Notes under the pieces: model-generated
Database searches by the model: none
Told to the model about the DNA's origin: nothing
The model's input: the letters and a program-made list of their open reading frames with translations, nothing else
Made by a program: the position numbers and the translations under genes
IMG/VR virus record: IMGVR_UViG_3300020152_000019
Length of the DNA: 64,000 nucleotides
DNA from: a virus
Direction: 5' to 3' (one strand)
Shown: positions 2,347 to 64,000 of the stretch, in pieces
Position numbering within the stretch: position 1 is the first letter of the stretch
How the letters are laid out: every line of letters starts with the position of its first letter

Positions 2347-3666
2347 ATGACTAAAGAAATTAAAGGGTTTATAACCCGTGATGATTTTATCAGCAGTAAT
2401 AATGCTACCGTATCTCCAATATATGAACTTTCTGACATAGGGTTTACCTATGCCAAGAGTAAGTTACAATACTATTCTTCGGTTGATCCGTTATATAGTA
2501 TGTACTTGTTTAAGCTTAAGGAATTGACTAGCTTAAGCCAAACTGAAGTAGATGACATTATTGCAGTAGTGAAGAAGTTTAGCGCATTTTTAACTTCTAC
2601 GCTAGTAACTAATAAGCAACAAGCGATTGTGTTGTTTTTAAACAACTACAACTCTGAGAACCCGACGAAGCCTGTGACGAACTTTAGTTACAACGCTATT
2701 GTTTCTCATAACAACATCAAGACTGTAGATTACATCACATTTAAGATTCATGATGTAGTATGCAATTTCTGGATGAGTGATTCGGTATTTAGAGCGTTCT
2801 ATCCCGAATACGATATTAATGTAGTGCTGCCTTTCCAGAACTTCACATCTATTGTTAACAATACCAGTGAATTCATTAACGCTATTGATCATTTCAACTT
2901 GATTGAATTCAATCGACGTGTAGAAGAAGATAAAAATAACCTTCCGTCTACATATACAAAGATTGTGAATATTCCGTATCGTGTTCCCAACACGACGGTG
3001 ACGAAGAATGTGTACTTTGCATTTAACATTTATGGATTGCAAGGTAACTACGATTACATTCTGAAGCTTGAGTTGTATAACAAGTTAGTGAATGGATTAG
3101 GATTGGATGGTACTTTCATTGAAAATATCTTCCCGACGATTCTGAATATCAATGAGTTCTTCATTACGCCGCGTTGGGATAGAATGGCGATTCCGTCGCA
3201 GATTGGACAGACAGGTATCAATAGCCAAATCTCGTTAAGTTTTGCTGAAACGTTTGATCTTAATAAATTCATTAAGGTCTACAACAACGTTAACTACTTA
3301 AGAGACAATACGTATGATGTGCCTTTTGACTATAACAATATTCTGTTACAAGTAACGAACGGCTATTATACTGAAGCTGAGATTAAAGACTTCGCTGCGT
3401 ATTACAGCGATATGATTACAATCACTTCGACCCATCCTGACTTTGCTCGGATGAAACAAAGAACACAAAAGTTCATTACGCTGTTAGAGAACATGTTGAA
3501 TGTTGCTAACTCTGCTAACTCTACTGAGTTGTTCAACAAGATCTTACAGAACAATGACTATCACTTTACAATTATTTCTAGAAGTGGGGTGAATTACCTG
3601 TCGTTCTTCTATGAAGAACATCAGATCTATGTCATTCCTCGATATGAATTCCTTCAAAATCTCTAA
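2347..3666 (+). CDS. putative virion structural protein (phiKZ-like)
   Basis: 439-aa ORF with RBS; resemblance to phiKZ-group structural proteins recalled, not searched. Confidence 0.55.
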   Translation: MTKEIKGFITRDDFISSNNATVSPIYELSDIGFTYAKSKLQYYSSVDPLYSMYLFKLKELTSLSQTEVDDIIAVVKKFSAFLTSTLVTNKQQAIVLFLNNYNSENPTKPVTNFSYNAIVSHNNIKTVDYITFKIHDVVCNFWMSDSVFRAFYPEYDINVVLPFQNFTSIVNNTSEFINAIDHFNLIEFNRRVEEDKNNLPSTYTKIVNIPYRVPNTTVTKNVYFAFNIYGLQGNYDYILKLELYNKLVNGLGLDGTFIENIFPTILNINEFFITPRWDRMAIPSQIGQTGINSQISLSFAETFDLNKFIKVYNNVNYLRDNTYDVPFDYNNILLQVTNGYYTEAEIKDFAAYYSDMITITSTHPDFARMKQRTQKFITLLENMLNVANSANSTELFNKILQNNDYHFTIISRSGVNYLSFFYEEHQIYVIPRYEFLQNL

Positions 3667-3677
3667 GGAGATAAGAC

Positions 3678-4325
3678 ATGCCTGACGTTACAATAAATAC
3701 ACCAAGTGTAGGCTTGGAAGCTTATTTCACATTCAAAGAGCCAGTGAACTATTACATCCGTAATAAGTTCAATCTTAACTCTCTTTCGATTAAGTTGAAA
3801 GTTATTAGTATCATCTCGATGAAAGATATGATACGTAACGATCTTCGTGATCCTTATACTGAACTTTATGAGCCTGCGGCGATTCCTGAAGTCGAGTATA
3901 AGAAAGACTTAATCGACAATATTCCTGTCGTTTCTTTTTCTTATTACGATAGAAACGGGGTAGAACGGTATATTCGTTCTCCGTTAAACTATATTGATAG
4001 CATGTCGAATGTATCGAATGTAGAATACATTAACAAGCTGTTAGTAGTAGATTTAAATAGATTACCGAAAGAATTAGATACCACTGTTTTCTTTTCTGAT
4101 CTTGCTGACTTTGTTGAATCTCGATTAGGTATTGTGCCTGAGATTAAAGAAGTAGCAGTAGGTCAAGTGGAGTTAGTTGACACTAATGAACACGAGACGA
4201 GAGAAACAGTACGAACCAATATGATTACAGTACATAAAACTTTACAAGTTCAACTTGAAGAAGCGAATTTACGTCATGATCAAATATTAGAACGCCTGCA
4301 AACATTGGGGATTTCTTTAGGCTAA
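3678..4325 (+). CDS. putative virion structural protein
   Basis: 215 aa, AAGGAG RBS, co-oriented with the previous gene. Confidence 0.5.
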   Translation: MPDVTINTPSVGLEAYFTFKEPVNYYIRNKFNLNSLSIKLKVISIISMKDMIRNDLRDPYTELYEPAAIPEVEYKKDLIDNIPVVSFSYYDRNGVERYIRSPLNYIDSMSNVSNVEYINKLLVVDLNRLPKELDTTVFFSDLADFVESRLGIVPEIKEVAVGQVELVDTNEHETRETVRTNMITVHKTLQVQLEEANLRHDQILERLQTLGISLG

Positions 4326-4373
4326 GGGAAACCGCCATGAAATCATGTGACTTTTTGAAAAGGAGCCGAAATC

Positions 4374-4781
4374 ATGGCTAGCTCATTTACACAGGAAGAT
4401 ATTAGACTATTAGAGAAGACAATTTCTATTCGAGAACGTGTCTTAGATAAGTTAATTGAGAATGGCAATATCTCTACTTCTGCTAAAGATGTCGAAGCTT
4501 TAACCGGTTTAGCAGACAGTATGGATAGAAGTATTTTCACTAAAGCGAAAATTAGTATTGATGAAGCGAATAGCAAAGTTAATGAAGAAACGAAAGAAGT
4601 TCTGCGTGATCTTCTATTGGATCTCCATAAGAACAATGCTGTTCCAACTGCTTCCGCAAATCAACCAGCGAAGGAAGCACCTTCTTTTGAACCTCGTGGG
4701 TTAGAAGTGAAGGAAGGTGAATTAATTCCGAAACATGATCAGACTGATGTGAATCAGTTCTTAGAATCTCGTCAAACGTAA
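4374..4781 (+). CDS. hypothetical protein
   Basis: 135 aa, AAGGAG RBS. Confidence 0.75.
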   Translation: MASSFTQEDIRLLEKTISIRERVLDKLIENGNISTSAKDVEALTGLADSMDRSIFTKAKISIDEANSKVNEETKEVLRDLLLDLHKNNAVPTASANQPAKEAPSFEPRGLEVKEGELIPKHDQTDVNQFLESRQT

Positions 4782-4783
4782 AC

Positions 4784-4816
4784 AAGACTACTGGAGGTTA
4801 TGCCTCCAGTAGTCTT
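4784..4816. terminator. bidirectional intrinsic terminator
   Basis: 14-bp hairpin AAGACTACTGGAGG/CCTCCAGTAGTCTT between convergent genes. Confidence 0.85.
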
Positions 4817-5052
4817 TAATATTTCACTTTACTATTTAATAACTGCGTTGAAGTATTAAACTCAGCAGGTTTATTAGTACTAGCGATATAGATGGCTTTT
4901 TCCGTAGTTAATTCATCAGCTTCTATTTCAGCTTGAAACTTTTTATAGAAACTATCCGAATCAACTTTATTCGGAAGGATTACTTTTTCATCAGTAATTT
5001 CCGTATTGATAATCACGTCTATGGGCTGTTTCGCTAAGAAATCGTTAAGCAT
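4816..5052 (-). CDS. hypothetical protein
   Basis: 78 aa, start overlaps the stop of the upstream minus-strand gene. Confidence 0.65.
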   Translation of the reverse strand: MLNDFLAKQPIDVIINTEITDEKVILPNKVDSDSFYKKFQAEIEADELTTEKAIYIASTNKPAEFNTSTQLLNSKVKY

Positions 5053-6274
5053 ATTGAGTTCCTAAAAACACTTCAGTCGTTGGATGCATATCATGCGTTC
5101 TATGCGAAGTATCGACATAATCAATCTTCTCTAGATGTTCCTTTTCTGCAGGAGTAACAGCAGGCATGACTTTTTCGAAATCAAAGTCGCTAAAAGAACC
5201 AGACTCATGGGTTCTAGTCGCTACATCAGCAGACGTGCATGAGTTCTTTTTAAACTCTTGTACTTTAGTAAACAGTCCTCTTTCCAATTCTGAAAGATTA
5301 TACGTATTGACAGAGTTAAGATCCACGTTTTGAATATTCTTCGCCATACTACCAAGCTTATCAGAAAGATTCGAATACTGAATATTCTTATCTCTTCTTT
5401 CCGTGTGAATCAATGGCAGTTTAATTAATTCACCGCGTGCAGAAAGAAGGTTTCTATATTCATTACTGTGTGAAGGATATTGAGTAAGTTGTTGATCAAT
5501 ATCGTAAATATACTCTCTTCTAGCAGAGTGACTTATTTCAGAGTTTCTTAAGTTCAGTAAGTTATTTTTAAAGTTTCCAGATCTAGCACTCATAGTGAAA
5601 TCATTTCTACTTACCGGGGTAAGAAGAGGGATAGGTGATTTCGCATTAAGGTAACTAGCGTAAGTTTGTGTAAAGTTATTAAAGGTATTGGCAGCATTCA
5701 TCACTATACCTTTAGGACTAATGATTTTCTCAATAGACGAAAGAGGACCAGAAGCTTTCATTTCGGATTGAGTAAAACCTTTACAATACCGATCTAACCA
5801 ACTAAGCAATAACGCCGTAAGCAGACCTGCAATGATGTTTTTGTTTAAGGCGTAACCCAACATAAACAATTTTAAGAAGTCAAGATTATTACAAAGAAAT
5901 TTACTACCGACATGCAGTAAATCTTTCATAAAGTCTTTTACACCACCTAAATCTAACTTCTTAAGAGAGTCAAAGATGTCTTTAACGATATCTGGCATTT
6001 CTAAGTTACTAATAGCGTCTATGGCCGCATTAAGTGCGTCCTTTAGGGTTTGCATTACCTCGGACGTAGCGTTCATTATAGCGTCTTGTAGATCGCTTAA
6101 AGAACTACTTACCTTTTCGATTAATTCATCTTTTTCTTTTGCTTCTGCAATCGCTGAATTAATAATTTCATCGACGCTATTATAAACCGAATTATCATTT
6201 AACTTACTAAAATCTACGGTAGGTAAGTTAGTTTCTTTATCTAAATACTTAAACCTTTGTGCTGCTATCGACAT
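5045..6274 (-). CDS. hypothetical protein
   Basis: 409-aa ORF, helical N-terminus. Confidence 0.8.
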   Translation of the reverse strand: MSIAAQRFKYLDKETNLPTVDFSKLNDNSVYNSVDEIINSAIAEAKEKDELIEKVSSSLSDLQDAIMNATSEVMQTLKDALNAAIDAISNLEMPDIVKDIFDSLKKLDLGGVKDFMKDLLHVGSKFLCNNLDFLKLFMLGYALNKNIIAGLLTALLLSWLDRYCKGFTQSEMKASGPLSSIEKIISPKGIVMNAANTFNNFTQTYASYLNAKSPIPLLTPVSRNDFTMSARSGNFKNNLLNLRNSEISHSARREYIYDIDQQLTQYPSHSNEYRNLLSARGELIKLPLIHTERRDKNIQYSNLSDKLGSMAKNIQNVDLNSVNTYNLSELERGLFTKVQEFKKNSCTSADVATRTHESGSFSDFDFEKVMPAVTPAEKEHLEKIDYVDTSHRTHDMHPTTEVFLGTQYA

Positions 6275-44584: not shown

Positions 44585-44620
44585 TCCCTGATAGCTCAGT
44601 CGGTAGAGCGACGGACTGTT
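44585..44620 (+). pseudogene. 5' half of tRNA-Asn, truncated after the GTT anticodon
   Basis: TCCCTGATAGCTCAGTCGGTAGAGCGACGGACTGTT followed by a T tract. Confidence 0.8.
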
Positions 44621-44633
44621 GTATTTTTTTTTT

Positions 44634-44709
44634 TCCGCAGTGACCAGAGTGGTAATGGCCTCGACTGTTAATCGAGTATTCACACGTTCGATCCGTGTCT
44701 GCGGAGCCA
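44634..44709 (+). tRNA. trnN: tRNA-Asn(GTT)
   Basis: TCCGCAG/CTGCGGA acceptor stem, CTCGA-CTGTTAA-TCGAG anticodon arm, TTCGATC T-loop, encoded CCA. Confidence 0.9.
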
Positions 44710-44749
44710 CGTATTCTTTAACTATGAATATTGCTTGAAAAATCCATAG

Positions 44750-44759
44750 TTACATATAT
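44750..44759 (+). promoter_or_regulatory. TTACATATAT promoter-like motif
   Basis: motif copy with upstream TTGAA. Confidence 0.6.
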
Positions 44760-44791
44760 TACATCTGTTATTAACAATAAGCGGGTGTAAT

Positions 44792-45205
44792 ATGAATGAA
44801 AAGAAAACAAATCAGTTAGGCATGAATTATAGTACTGCCTATAATCGTTTAATACGAGATATTATCTGGTCTTTGATAGTAGATTCAGGTAGGTATAGAT
44901 GTTGTCGTTGTAATGAATTTATGACGAGAGAAGACTATACTATCGAACATATTGAACCATGGCAAGACACAGAAGATCCTGTTAAGTTATTCTTTAGTTT
45001 AGAGAATATTGGTTTTAGTCATCATAAGTGTAATATGGAACATAAAAGAAGACATGGTTTTGCTTCTCAAGCTGTTCACGGGACATCGACTATGTATGAA
45101 AGAGGTTGTCGCTGCGATCCGTGCAAACAAGCTAGTTCCGAATATAGAAAAAGTAAATATACAATTGAAAAACGAAGAAAGAAATATTTAAAGAACGGTT
45201 ATTAA
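44792..45205 (+). CDS. HNH endonuclease
   Basis: CxxC...EHIEP...N.GFSHHKCN plus C-terminal HG...GCRCDPC. Confidence 0.85.
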   Translation: MNEKKTNQLGMNYSTAYNRLIRDIIWSLIVDSGRYRCCRCNEFMTREDYTIEHIEPWQDTEDPVKLFFSLENIGFSHHKCNMEHKRRHGFASQAVHGTSTMYERGCRCDPCKQASSEYRKSKYTIEKRRKKYLKNGY

Positions 45206-60134: not shown

Positions 60135-60458
60135 ATGATTTATACGTTCGCTAATCGCACTGTAGGGCTTGTTGGGCAATTTGAGACGCCAATAGAACTT
60201 ATGCAATTGGCGATCTTTTATCTGGGCGGTAGATGTTTTGTTGTCTATAATAAAATAATCATTCCTGATGTGATTGTTATCGGGAAGCACACATCCAGTA
60301 AAGCCATCGAAGCTATCGAAAAACATTTCATGAATGGACAAATGTCAAGCATTCCTGTTTATGAAGCTAAGATTAACGACCACATGCCAGACGATAAAAT
60401 GTTTAGTGATATCCTCGATCGTGTAAAAGAAGAACTTCCTTGGTGTATTGGTTATTGA
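60135..60458 (+). CDS. possible stand-alone BRCT-like domain
   Basis: VGLVGQF...YLGG...DVIVIG...KAIEA...IPVY pattern. Confidence 0.45.
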   Translation: MIYTFANRTVGLVGQFETPIELMQLAIFYLGGRCFVVYNKIIIPDVIVIGKHTSSKAIEAIEKHFMNGQMSSIPVYEAKINDHMPDDKMFSDILDRVKEELPWCIGY

Positions 60459-60519
60459 AAAAATACTAGAAATCCATATATAGTGAACAGAACGCAACCT
60501 GCATTTGAAGTAAACACAA

Positions 60520-60530
60520 TTGCATATATA
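60520..60530 (+). promoter_or_regulatory. TTGCATATATA promoter-like motif
   Basis: one-mismatch copy with TTGAA and GTGA, heads the RNA island. Confidence 0.6.
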
Positions 60531-60572
60531 TTAAGTGATATAAGCATATGTGTAATTCCTATAGGAGATTAA

Positions 60573-60743
60573 ATGTCGACTGAAGAATTGAATGCTGAAA
60601 ATGCAAAGATTGCAGCAGACGCTAAGGAAGCACACAAAATCCTTTCTGAGCTTTGCTACAATCATGACGAGAATGCAACGCTTACTGATTTAGCAAATCG
60701 TGTGCGTAACATTGTAGTCGCTTCAACAGGTTGCGATCACTAG
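60573..60743 (+). CDS. hypothetical 56-aa protein
   Basis: AGGAG RBS; MSTEELNAEN...GCDH. Confidence 0.65.
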   Translation: MSTEELNAENAKIAADAKEAHKILSELCYNHDENATLTDLANRVRNIVVASTGCDH

Positions 60744-60752
60744 CAAGAATTT

Positions 60753-61343
60753 GCCCGAGTGGTGAAATTGGTAGACACAGCGGACTTATTGAAAAATTGA
60801 GCACCTACGAAAAATGCGGAAGTAAAACTTCAAACTAACCTTCCCGATCAAAAGGGAAAACTTGTAAGAAGGAATTTCGCAACCGAAAGGCGTATAAACA
60901 TTCTTCGGAATGGGTGAATCTCTTCAAATTCGGCGAACACTAAAAAAGCGATGAAGTCAGAGACTTCGCATAGTCGCATTAGCTCGGTGATACCGTCGAG
61001 CTAATTGATGTCAACGCCGAGCCAAGCCTGATAAGATCCTTTAAAGTATGGGTAAACTTCAGGAAGGTGTAGAGACTGTAAGGAGAGGATCTAAGTAGAG
61101 AGGGAGCAGGAATAGGTACCTGTTCACGGCAAGCAATTGCGTGTAATCAAATCGCCTTATCAAAACCCGATCTATACGATCAAGACACAGTCCAGACCAC
61201 GAACAGCGTATTCCATAAGTAGCTTCGGTCTTAACCTAAGCGAAATAGATGGTTGATCTCTGGCGTCGAAAGACGAAGTGGTAAGAAAATCCGCCGCTTA
61301 CCCGAGAGGGGGCGTACCGGTTCGATTCCGGTTTCGGGCACCA
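60753..61343 (+). tRNA. trnL: tRNA-Leu(TAA) split by a group I intron (exons 60753-60787 and 61286-61343)
   Basis: GCCCGAG/TTCGGGC acceptor stem; the splice rebuilds GCGGA-CTTAAAA-TCCGC; long variable arm; CCA. Confidence 0.92.
60788..61285 (+). mobile_element. group I intron (IC3-like, trnL(UAA) type), no ORF
   Basis: P/Q/R/S elements (CAAATTCGGCG, CGCCGAGCCAA, GAAGGTGTAGAGACTG, AAGACACAGTCC), P3 CTCTTC/GGAGAG, P9.0 ACCAC/GTGGT, terminal G after the U34 exon. Confidence 0.9.
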
Positions 61344-61345
61344 GA

Positions 61346-61990
61346 AAAGGTTCGGTAGTGAACCTCCCCTCTAAGCTTCGGCTTAGAGACAAGCCTCCTT
61401 TGGCAACTACCAAAAAGGCTAGGCAGGTAGCCTCCTCTCTGAATTTAGGTTTAGAGCCAAGTCCACTTGGACACCTGCCAGATTCACGTCGTGAGACGTT
61501 TATACTTAGACACCACCGTTGAAAGACGGTAAAGATCCAAAGCTTGCGTGCAGGGGCGGCCTGCTTCAAGAGCCATTTGAAATGCCGTAAAACCACCTGT
61601 AACTGGACTAAGTCCTAAGAGGGTGTAACTAATCCGGTAAGGCAACGGTAGTACTTGAATTAAGAATTAAAACGTGGATCGGTGAATCTTCTCAAAGTCG
61701 GTATGACTAAAAAAGCGATGAGGCTAGAGGTCTCTTAAGTTGCATTAGCTCGGTGTTATCGTCGAGCTAATTGATGTCAAAATCGAGCCAAGCTTAATGA
61801 TTCTATTAGATAACTTTCCTACCGGTGTGTTATTTGATAGTTTCTATTATGAAGGTGTAAGACTAATGGGAAGTACTGTTACTACTAAACTGACAGGAAG
61901 GGGAAGTTGGTAACAGTAAAAGGTCTAACCCATGAGCATAAATGAATCCTCCTGAGAAAAGTGTTCTGTTTATGTTTGTGGTTCTATTCT
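61346..61990 (+). ncRNA. free-standing group-I-derived structured RNA with a multi-hairpin 5' domain
   Basis: 61681-61930 is paralogous to the intron core with compensatory P3/P4 changes; 5' region rich in UUCG/GNRA hairpins; no exons found. Confidence 0.65.
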
Positions 61991-62006
61991 AAGAGAATAA
62001 GGAAAT

Positions 62007-62045
62007 ACCCTCAGGGAGCAATCCCTGAGGTTTCTAAATTTTTCC
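62007..62045 (+). terminator. intrinsic terminator-like hairpin
   Basis: CCTCAGGGA-GCAA-TCCCTGAGG followed by a T-rich tract. Confidence 0.65.
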
Positions 62046-62182
62046 TTGAGTGCGGTTGAACTGTATTTACGATTGTTCTTAGCTTTGCATTCGTGAGAGT
62101 GTAAGGATATTGTAAATGCGGTTGTTATTACCTCCGCATTCGAGAAGAATCAAGAGAGTAACATCTCTTGTATTATTGTCGT

Positions 62183-62515
62183 ATGGAGAGGGTAAAACTT
62201 CTCTGAGACTTTCAAGGTGAAAGGCTTCTGGACGCGGGTTCGATTCCCGCCTCGTCCAATAAGTACATTCTAACGAGTGTGGTTATTGGGCGAGTACTGG
62301 TTTCGACAGGGGTTAAGTAGGTGAGAAGGAACGACACGTCCATGAGCGCGGACGTTAATCTGGGTTCAATAAAGTAAATGCTGCTAATGATAGCCATTTC
62401 CGCGCTGCTGCCTAAAAACAGCTAACGGATGAGGTCACTAATCTAGTTCGCTAGGTTAGGTCGTCTACTCTCCCGATAATGACGGAGTCCTTATACCCCA
62501 AACAGGTAGACGACA
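62183..62515 (+). ncRNA. ssrA: circularly permuted two-piece tmRNA (acceptor piece ends 62258; coding piece starts 62288)
   Basis: T-arm GCGGG-TTCGATT-CCCGC plus CTCGTCC-A precedes GGGCGAG-TACTGGTTTCGAC; G3-U70 pair; tag ORF 62380-62415 (AANDSHFRAAA*); outer ends approximate. Confidence 0.9.
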
Positions 62516-62521
62516 CACGAC

Positions 62522-62598
62522 GTGCCCATAGCTCAGTAGGATAGAGCAACAGCCTTCTAAGCTGTGGGTCGGGGGTTCGAATCCCTCTGGGCGCGCCA
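62522..62598 (+). tRNA. trnR: tRNA-Arg(TCT)
   Basis: GTGCCCA/TGGGCGC acceptor stem, ACAGC-CTTCTAA-GCTGT anticodon arm, CCA. Confidence 0.95.
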
Positions 62599-62606
62599 TT
62601 GTTTCT

Positions 62607-62662
62607 GTAGTAAACTGAACTCAATCGAGTCAGAATTTTATAACTGTTATCTCGTTAAGGAG
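62607..62662 (+). repeat. leader repeat copy 1
   Basis: GTAGTAAACTGAACTCAATCGAGTCAG...AACTG...CTCGTTAAGG. Confidence 0.8.
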
Positions 62663-62668
62663 ATTAAT

Positions 62669-62872
62669 ATGAATGCTACCGCTCAACAAGCTGCGGAACA
62701 ATGTATTAGGAAGCATCATTTAGTATTAGATGAAAAACATAAACAGCTATTAATCGGACTTTTCGAGCAAGTCGAAGTTACGAAAAAAGGTATTTATTTA
62801 CACGAGCTTGGGAATAAGATAAGTAATTTTATCAAAACCCAAAAACGTAAACAACGCATGAAATTGAATTAA
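62669..62872 (+). CDS. hypothetical protein
   Basis: AAGGAG RBS before MNATAQQ. Confidence 0.7.
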   Translation: MNATAQQAAEQCIRKHHLVLDEKHKQLLIGLFEQVEVTKKGIYLHELGNKISNFIKTQKRKQRMKLN

Positions 62873-62874
62873 GA

Positions 62875-62930
62875 GTAGTAAACTGAACTCAATAGAGTCA
62901 GTCTTTTTTAAACTGTGTTCTCGTTAAGGG
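62875..62930 (+). repeat. leader repeat copy 2
   Basis: GTAGTAAACTGAACTCAATAGAGTCAG...AACTG...CTCGTTAAGG. Confidence 0.8.
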
Positions 62931-62939
62931 GAAATTAAA

Positions 62940-63305
62940 GTGTCAAATCTTCATATTGTAAAAACTGAATCTACTAAGCTTCAGTCTCGTATTTATAATG
63001 TAATCAAAGTTCTAGCTGGTTTAAATAAAACCACAATTATCAGGAAAGAAATTGTTGATTACTCTCGCTTCACTATCGAACATCCTCAGGCTTATGTTCC
63101 TGATTTTGACTTCGAGTGGTGCGACTCTAAAAAGCATTATCGAGTGTATATCCATCAAGCATTTACTAACGAAGCTAAACGCCGTCGTGGTTACTGCATT
63201 GCTGTGATTAACGGACCACTCGCTGCTACCGAATTCGTGCAGATGTATAAGTTCTTACATAAGCACCGCGCCAATAACAAAGATTCTATGCAAGAAGCAG
63301 CGTAA
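62940..63305 (+). CDS. hypothetical protein
   Basis: 121 aa, GTG start after AAGGGG. Confidence 0.75.
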   Translation: MSNLHIVKTESTKLQSRIYNVIKVLAGLNKTTIIRKEIVDYSRFTIEHPQAYVPDFDFEWCDSKKHYRVYIHQAFTNEAKRRRGYCIAVINGPLAATEFVQMYKFLHKHRANNKDSMQEAA

Positions 63306-63307
63306 AG

Positions 63308-63810
63308 AATACCCTCTGCAATACACAGAGTATGGATGACAAACTCATATTACCGGGGTAAGCGCAAGCAGCCGTCGGATAATGGTGATAAGGTCTACCC
63401 AATGTAGGAGCCGTGATAGTTAGACATTGATCTATACAGATTCGTGTCTACCAAGCGTCTAGGACATCGCCTTCGCACGACAAAGCGAACAAGCCTTGTT
63501 AAACGGTCTAGATAGATTCTTTACTGACTCAACCAGTTTATGAATGACGCTTTTGCTGCTGTTGAACTTATCGTGCTGAAACTGATCATTTCAGCGGTGG
63601 AGAAAACCTTTTATTCGGTAGACCTTGTTCGAGGAGTATAAGGTGGACATAGAAGCTAGATAAGAGCCGGGACCGCACTGACTGGCGGAGTGTCAAGTCG
63701 TCTGATACCAATTTGATTACGGGGTAGCTATATCCCTGACGGCTTAATAGAAGTGGAAGGAAACTTTTGCCTGAAGGCAGTTGGGAGTGGTATCCTAATT
63801 GTCTTTGGAG
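63308..63810 (+). ncRNA. unidentified large structured RNA
   Basis: GC-richer gene-free region with nested long-range helices (63370/63744, 63390/63626, 63453/63552); ends approximate. Confidence 0.6.
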
Positions 63811-63832
63811 AAAAGTTTTTAATAATAAAGAA

Positions 63833-63871
63833 ACTAGAGAAAGGAGTAACATCCTTTCTCTAGGGTATTCT
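63833..63871 (+). terminator. intrinsic terminator
   Basis: CTAGAGAAAGGA/TCCTTTCTCTAG then a T tract. Confidence 0.75.
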
Positions 63872-63930
63872 TTTTTTGCTGTACCTGAGTCACGGCGGGT
63901 CTCCGTGGCATTTTTAATAGGAGTTTCTAA

Positions 63931-64000
63931 ATGAAACTGAAATTCACGAAAGACGCACAAGCAGTTATCGATGAAATTGCTAAACTTCCTACTCAAACTT
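63931..64000 (+). CDS. partial CDS running off the window
   Basis: AGGAG RBS, MKLKFTKDAQ... Confidence 0.6.
   Translation, partial: MKLKFTKDAQAVIDEIAKLPTQT

Follow-up and report, generated by a model that had tools for sequence, protein, structure and literature searches.

A paralog of a tRNA-Leu group I intron core with altered splicing junctions in the RNA island of a jumbo phage

RESULTS

An RNA island with an intron-split tRNA-Leu gene and a noncoding element

The DNA analyzed (the window) is a stretch of 64,000 nucleotides from the IMG/VR virus record IMGVR_UViG_3300020152_000019. Its source is a jumbo phage, represented by a 234-kb metagenome contig that was assembled as a circle (ENA ERZ27252484, k141_498264). 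The window contains an RNA island in which a tRNA-Leu(UAA) gene with an intron is followed, all in the same orientation, by the element described here, a permuted two-piece tmRNA (62154-62506) and tRNA-Arg(UCU). The permuted tmRNA is of the beta type, which suggests that the host is a betaproteobacterium. The tRNA-Leu(taa) gene was called with a 498-nt intron using the intron option of aragorn, and the 3' end of this intron (GAAGUGGUAAG, followed by AAAAUCC) agrees with those of bacterial tRNA-Leu introns. No gene was called in the region of the element and its ORFs gave no Pfam match on either strand, and a protein-coding reading was rejected. The features of the locus are collected in Table 1.

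Several other observations concern the surroundings. The window was cut from a circularized and rotated version of the contig, and the join (61547-61687) falls inside the element. A Logan assembly of the public run SRR7003767 (SRR7003767_579037) contains this phage too, with identical proteins. Past the window edge (approximately 66.65-66.98 kb in window numbering; L043:5106-5430) lies a tRNA-Met(CAU) gene with an intron between nucleotides 33 and 34; this is a compact IC3 intron of 247 nt. The phage carries at least two intron-split tRNA genes (tRNA-Leu and tRNA-Met) in addition to a dead copy. Directly upstream of the split tRNA-Met is a truncated piece like a tRNA 5' half (L043:5056-5100), which resembles the broken tRNA-Asn that the initial annotation had noted at 44585-45205; the two hint at repeated partial duplication or replacement of tRNA genes. 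The stretch 63308-63830 is gene-free and strongly self-complementary and ends at a bidirectional terminator hairpin (63834-63863); it gave no Rfam match (E<=10) and no likeness to the noncoding region of relatives.

Table 1. Features of the tRNA-Leu gene and the downstream element, 5' to 3'
Feature	Position	Strand	Basis
tRNA-Leu(UAA) gene, split by the parent IC3 group I intron (~60786-61285)	60753..61343	+	
h1 hairpin	61349-61364	+	folding
UUCG hairpin	61369-61388	+	folding
h3 hairpin	61392-61420	+	folding
Three-way element, closed by 7-bp helix 61422-28/61474-80	within 5' hairpin block 61345..61480	+	folding
Multi-helix domain, 200 nt, at the place of P2 in a group I intron	61481..61680	+	minimum-energy folds
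Shared J2/3 GGUGAAU, then P3 5' strand CUUCUC (61688-93)	61681..61693	+	repeat, alignments
J3/4 AAA, kept; P4 5' strand UCGGU (61698-702); J4/5 AUG	61694..61705	+	alignments
P5 three-way extension: P5a (61715-43), P5b (61744-71)	61706..61781	+	repeats, alignments
P4 3' strand AUCGA (61782-86), invariant GCCAAGC (61787-93), long P6 hairpin	61782..61852	+	
J6/7 AGGUGUA, P7 5' strand AGACU (61860-64), J7/3 AAU, P3 3' strand GGGAAG (61868-73)	61853..61873	+	
P8 hairpin	61874..61918	+	folding, -13.2 kcal/mol
Short J8/7 (AAA) and P7 3' strand GGUCU, replacing invariant AGUCC	61919..61926	+	alignment comparison
P9-like long hairpin, G-U rich	61929..61982	+	folding, -16.6 kcal/mol
Vestigial intron end	61985..61999	+	sequence compared with real 3' ends; fold
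Probable terminator: 9-bp G+C-rich hairpin (62009-62030), then TTTCTAAATTTTT	62009..62045	+	folds, -17.6 kcal/mol

An element does lie where the initial annotation had put it (61346-61990), but it most likely extends from the tRNA end (61345) to the terminator hairpin and the T tract behind it. The consensus terminator scan called this hairpin on the minus strand only, because the T tract on the plus strand is interrupted.

The hairpins that had been listed upstream of the intron-like core, with UUCG (61369-61388), GUGA (61486-61499) and GAAA (61515-61530) loops, were all recovered by folding, and the helix noted at 61422/61479 corresponds to the 7-bp helix that closes the three-way element. 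At E<=10 the 5' hairpin block matched nothing in Rfam, and it bears no significant resemblance to the tRNA-Leu gene or to the intron in it. Next to it, a 9-bp helix (61481-89/61672-80; single-sequence prediction) that abuts the shared J2/3 is predicted to close the 200-nt domain, which contains the GUGA and GAAA hairpins. The folding z-score of the 5' domain is -3.1. The hairpins behind the description "new 5' domain" are present, but 61345-61566 could be a separate upstream RNA or a spacer in which the intron copy landed.

The element contains a paralog of the neighboring intron core

The core of the element had been described as a paralog of the adjacent intron core, and both repeat finding and BLAST agree with this. 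A single BLAST alignment joins 61678-61793 to 60910-61027 with 80.5% identity over 118 nt (E 5.5e-26). Repeat finding gave three direct repeats: 60972-61032/61738-61798 (61 nt, 87%), 60939-60962/61706-61729 (88%) and 60910-60933/61678-61701 (83%). Beyond the aligned block, weaker homology runs through P7, P3' and P7' into P9. The distance from the parent intron to the paralog copy is 766 bp.

The P5 three-way extension, an insert of 60 nt relative to the IC3 consensus, is common to the copy and the tRNA-Leu intron only and is near-identical in both. In P5a, pairs are preserved through two both-sided changes; in the 12-bp stem of P5b all pairs are kept, and the sole difference is a G-C pair that has become G-U. 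The hairpins further downstream diverge in sequence: P6 (-16.8 kcal/mol) is not alignable with the parent P6, and P8, whose sequence is unlike that of the parent P8, has almost perfect pairing.

Comparison with IC3 tRNA introns

As an outside standard, 120 IC3-type introns were fetched from bacterial genomes, 89 of which were placed inside tRNA genes. Two alignments of IC3 tRNA introns were made (n=70, then n=50), and a covariance model, R1, was built from the 50 sequences. R1 matched the tRNA-Leu intron (116 bits) and the tRNA-Met intron (124 bits) over their full length. The paralog copy scored 17.7 bits and matched model positions 48-151 only, covering P3, P4, P6, the P7 5' strand and P3'; its P7' half was not aligned. 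This match, at 61686-61873, has an E value of 2.4e-4 over 75.8 kb and of 2.5e-6 within 801 bases. The copy's score compares with 116-208 bits for tRNA-type introns; full-length matches in viral contigs range from 30 to 208 bits, and the lower-scoring ones include introns of protein genes.

No Rfam family was found for the parent intron or the copy, even at E<=10, and cmscan (Rfam 15, E<=10) of 61340-62050 and 60400-64000 returned only noise for the region of the element. Rfam misses even the canonical tRNA-Leu intron (60753-61343), probably because of inserts of 60-70 nt in P5 and P8; this intron was recovered only by the purpose-built IC3 model.

The copy shares with IC3 tRNA introns (Azoarcus tRNA-Ile, Anabaena and other cyanobacterial tRNA-Leu(UAA)) the order P3-J3/4-P4...P4'-GCCAAGC-P6-GAAGGUGUA-P7-P3'-P8-P7'-P9 and the core blocks. 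The J3/4 AAA, the GAGCCAAGC block and the J6/7 GAAGGUG block of the P3-P4-P6 scaffold were found in it. It differs from them in having no recognizable tRNA or other exons and no convincing P1, in its deviant J4/5, J8/7 and P7, and in the 335 nt of unrelated 5' structure added. We do not class the copy as a working IC3 member because four defining features that were tested are absent, namely a full-length family-model match at the level of real members (17.7 bits, partial), the P7 strands AGAGACU/AGUCC, the IC3 J8/7 and the IC3 J4/5.

Helices are kept in the copy

The copy keeps the J3/4 AAA, P4 at five of six pairs, the P5 extension, GAGCCAAGC and GAAGGUGUA, together with P3 and the long P6, P8 and P9 hairpins. 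The P7 G-C pair 61861/61925, the counterpart of the guanosine-binding pair, is also kept. The compensatory changes that had been proposed from the letters were found as described. In P3, CTCTTC/GGAGAG of the parent has become CTTCTC/GGGAAG (61688-61693/61868-61873), and in two of these pairs both sides are swapped; in P4, TCGGCG/CGCCGA has become TCGGT/ATCGA.

To examine the helices together, the pairs of the parent P4-P5abc, folded alone, were transferred to the copy. Of the 33 pairs, 22 are the same in both, 8 differ but still form (both sides changed in 3 of the 8), and the 3 broken ones all lie near J4/5. So few breaks have P ~0.001 against the same number of random substitutions. When parent and copy were folded jointly, none of the 31 pairs was broken. 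The substitutions that separate copy and parent in the alignable helices (P3, P4 and P5abc) preserve pairing. The folding z-score is -5.25 for 61660-62045 (core and 3' tail) and -3.6 for the core; 20 real IC3 introns average -2.5, and coding controls range from -0.7 to -1.7.

Junctions needed for splicing are lost or altered

In group I ribozymes, docking of the P1 substrate helix depends on J4/5 and J8/7, which also help to hold the catalytic metals. J4/5 is AUG in the copy, with one nucleotide fewer, compared with GAA in real IC3 introns, where G64, A65 and A66 are invariant in the 50 sequences. In P7, one nucleotide (the extra or bulged one adjoining the guanosine-binding G-C pair) is missing from AGAGACU, giving A-AGACU/GGUCU in the copy. 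The strand joining J6/7 to P7 had been reported as one nucleotide shorter, and this is so: the intron has GTGTAGAGACT and the copy GTGTA-AGACT. The P7' strand AGUCC is invariant in 70/70 and 50/50 introns, and two of its positions are changed in GGUCU of the copy.

The shortening of J8/7 was likewise found, from AAGACAC in the intron to AAA in the copy; opening the two end pairs of P8 would extend it to UAAAAG at most. The J8/7 consensus, GAAGGGAU, is 7-8 nt long and conserved, with only some positions invariant, and J8/7 of the copy is 3-4 nt shorter. The invariance of J4/5 GAA and of AGUCC was not imposed by the pattern used to search for introns. The parent intron has J4/5 GAA and AGUCC exactly and a full-length J8/7; the copy has none of the three. 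The altered parts of the copy are exactly those that splicing needs, because J4/5 and J8/7 dock P1 and hold the metals. Taken as statements about the sequence, those of the initial annotation all hold.

Search for exons and a splice-site helix

No convincing P1, exons or tRNA remnant was found around the copy. We considered that it might be an ordinary intron in a missed tRNA gene, but aragorn (introns <=900 nt) and Rfam gave only tRNA-Leu, tRNA-Arg and the tmRNA. The flanks were also compared with tRNA-Leu as possible decayed exons, and the local alignments were no better than those of shuffled sequences (P 0.3-0.95). A decayed intron 3' end within the 5' domain, as in a tandem-gene or permuted intron-exon layout, was rejected as well, for there was no significant likeness; with filters off, the IC3 model found only the GAAA hairpin in the 5' domain (E 0.2).

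The candidates that remain, a P1 at 61563-61573 (GCUU followed by CAAGAGC) and a UAAG ending at 61993, are at chance level only. The CUU...GAG hairpin at 61563-73 mimics the P1 of tRNA-Leu and lies 122 nt upstream of P3, compared with 134 nt in the parent; by our estimate such a hairpin is expected by chance about 1.5 times per 335 nt. No P10 could be drawn, and ligation of the candidate exons restores no recognizable gene. The initial annotation saw no evident exons or terminal G junction; a vestigial intron end (GUGGU..UAAG) is present, with its G at 61993. In this end the canonical GUGGUAAG is interrupted by a 7-nt insertion, and a 6-bp hairpin (UAUUCU/AGAAUA) holds the would-be terminal G in its AAG triloop.

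Distribution among relatives

Patterns for orthologs (the P5 and J5/4 blocks and the P7 deletion, exact and gapped) retrieved none from viral contigs and metagenome contigs; the matches that appeared were due to chance or belonged to two unrelated group I introns of protein genes. Pattern scans of genome collections found no ortholog, and phage GenBank records gave no match. When a neighboring ORFan protein was compared with 5.8 billion proteins, its only match was itself. In GenBank, Bacillus phage AgentSmith is the best relative (PolB 59%), and in IMG/VR the best relatives are two genomes, G001 and G002 (PolB 65%); the common ground of all three with the window consists only of tRNA and tmRNA pieces, and G001 and G002 have neither the intron nor the copy.

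In the relative with 65% PolB identity IMGVR_UViG_3300034198_008895 (L040; minus strand, 5104-3698; identical in L041), an intronless tRNA-Leu(UAA) is followed by a 109-aa ORF, about 480 nt of unrelated noncoding DNA and a permuted tmRNA, whose intervening segment is much longer than in the window. The same phenomenon seemed to occur elsewhere in IMG/VR, where weak partial matches lie near strong introns (L182 and L192), but these are separate, real introns of protein genes.

DISCUSSION

A structured RNA or a decaying copy

Two readings of these data come first. The one we prefer, tentatively and without calling it probable, is that 61345-62045 specifies a structured RNA of about 700 nt, derived from a group I intron, that does not splice and whose structure is maintained. 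We rank second, as a serious possibility nonetheless, that it is a neutral fossil: a duplicated or ectopic copy of the tRNA-Leu intron or a close relative that came to lie in the spacer, lost catalysis and is slowly decaying. The intact helices would then reflect youth and an earlier period as a working intron and not present selection. The initial annotation had proposed a ribozyme scaffold repurposed as a noncoding RNA. Its group I origin, its compensated scaffold and its lost or altered junctions stand, the repurposing itself is not established, and exaptation of the scaffold is plausible.

The distribution of the changes bears on both readings. Approximately 27 junction nucleotides contain eight or nine changes, and the helices, some 300 nt, are nearly intact; uniform neutral decay is hard to reconcile with this pattern. 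The changes cluster in the junctions, and P3, P4, P5a, P5b, P6, P8 and P9 are still stable. The hairpins P6, P8 and P9 are unalignable with those of the parent yet remain long and near-perfect, and the folding z-score is no weaker than that of working introns. Useless DNA is, moreover, usually purged from phage genomes. On the other hand, lesions in these places are as expected once selection for splicing ends, and the G-U-rich P9 is what decay by transitions predicts. Without an outgroup the compensatory changes can be assigned to neither lineage; they may be older than the loss of splicing or belong to the lineage of the parent, and gene conversion could account for the near-identical P5abc.

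Further points favor decay. Selfish introns end as decayed copies more often than they are exapted. Intron traffic in this phage is high, as indicated by at least two other IC3 tRNA introns that look active and by the scars of partial tRNA duplication. The interval between tRNA-Leu and the tmRNA is variable, as the ORF and unrelated DNA of the relatives illustrate, and none of the collections searched contains a second example of the element. A maintained RNA is represented by one genome only, with no ortholog in the scanned collections and with its nearest relatives, G001 and G002, lacking both intron and copy. Degeneration after invasion is described as the standard fate of group I introns (PMC4059233).

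The copy comes from the same IC3 lineage as the tRNA-Leu(UAA) intron, either by local duplication or by ectopic insertion into the noncoding trailer between tRNA-Leu and the tmRNA. If a structured RNA is maintained, the element would be co-transcribed with tRNA-Leu, because there is no terminator between them and the next hairpin and T tract are those at 62009-62045, and the RNA may be freed upon tRNA processing. It would then fold into a compact group I core, with the new hairpin-rich 5' region of 335 nt at the place of P2. Its role, if any, would be that of a folded scaffold and not of an intron. The P5abc module, unique to these two RNAs and near-identical in them, is the only clue to a role in the sequence; speculatively, it could let the RNA bind the same protein or RNA partner as in the active intron.

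Residual catalysis and assembly

That the element is still an active ribozyme seems improbable to us. It would be either a sluggish intron with 61345-61566 as its 5' exon, or a ribozyme that cleaves itself by hydrolysis or branching in the manner of GIR1. The retained guanosine-binding G-C pair, J3/4, J6/7 and P4-P6 domain are consistent with activity, and with J8/7 counted generously as 6 nt, residual catalysis is possible, which also tells against a structure maintained without splicing. The tRNA-Leu P1-like hairpin lies at nearly the spacing of the parent, but is expected by chance; the UAAG is like a canonical intron end, but its would-be terminal G is locked in the triloop hairpin. GIR1 offers a precedent, with an altered J8/7, no splice sites and a new reaction (PMC3679873; PMC2219692). 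In the copy, however, J4/5, J8/7, the extra P7 nucleotide and AGUCC all depart from invariant positions, and the R1 score is 17.7 bits compared with 116-124 for the introns of this phage. It also lacks a recognizable P10, candidate exons whose ligation gives a recognizable gene, a match to any Rfam ribozyme family at E<=10 and, unlike GIR1, a downstream homing endonuclease gene.

An artefact of assembly or circularization, with a chimeric junction between 5' domain and core where the contig ends meet, is very improbable: k141_498264 (234,290 bp) does end at window position 61687 and start at 61547, near the start of the core, but the overlap is exactly 141 nt, the k of the assembler and the usual signature of a closed circle, this 141-mer is unique, the intron copies share at most 21 identical nucleotides in a row and so cannot mislead a k=141 graph, and a contig of 10-20 kb is indexed for each of three genes flanking the junction (one on one side and two on the other), so that probably one contig spans it.

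Relation to known systems

Group I introns are textbook selfish ribozymes and, to our knowledge, GIR1 of protists is the only accepted group I fold turned to another use. GIR1 is eukaryotic and measures about 180-200 nt; it is nested within another intron, with a homing endonuclease gene downstream, and combines a P15/P3/P7 double pseudoknot with a known branching reaction. Like the copy, GIR1 (from the twin-ribozyme rDNA introns of Didymium and Naegleria) is derived from a group I intron, has no recognizable splice sites and has an altered core. The copy differs in that it belongs to a phage and spans about 700 nt; it has neither an Rfam match nor a downstream ORF, and P15 and P10 are not evident. 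It did not match the curated GIR1 model, showed neither the intron/endonuclease position nor the P15/P10 topology, and is followed by a terminator instead of an ORF. With its single GGUCU strand, P7 and a P15-like helix cannot both form.

GIR1 has been described as a unique group I intron without splice sites and with core rearrangements that gained new properties (PMC3679873), and the proposal has been made that an IC3-like intron gave rise to it when mutations accumulated in J8/7, P2 and P3 after the need to splice had ended (PMC2219692). Our data make it conceivable, though we consider it doubtful, that the remodeled core and its new 335-nt domain are kept as a functional noncoding RNA, a phage counterpart of GIR1. 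Its role could then be that of a scaffold or decoy sharing P5abc with the tRNA-Leu intron, or a new self-processing activity.

In Clostridioides difficile, a group I ribozyme in an mRNA leader is controlled by a c-di-GMP-II riboswitch. As with the copy, no conserved gene is interrupted, and the ribozyme has a use other than restoring an ORF or an RNA; however, it is competent and splices, whereas the copy is without splicing junctions. Accounts of degeneration usually concern the homing endonuclease gene, or introns that must still splice from a gene, and a free-standing core with perfect helices in a phage spacer departs from that picture. The copy does resemble the cycle of invasion, degeneration and loss (PMC4059233) in that catalytic features were lost once unneeded.

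An intact intron and its altered sister lie side by side as a natural experiment in a single transcript. The pair could show which parts of the fold outlast splicing and whether phages recruit ribozyme scaffolds as noncoding RNAs. Even as a fossil, the copy records the ectopic spread of a tRNA intron in a jumbo-phage RNA island with at least three IC3-type elements. Its interest would be high if expression and conservation were shown, and it is moderate as matters stand.

The scan with the IC3 model also drew attention to another viral contig, IMGVR_UViG_3300020414_002119 (L202), in which six matches of 21-61 bits lie on one strand within 2.2 kb (3636-5841). This run is an unusually dense tandem array of group I cores.
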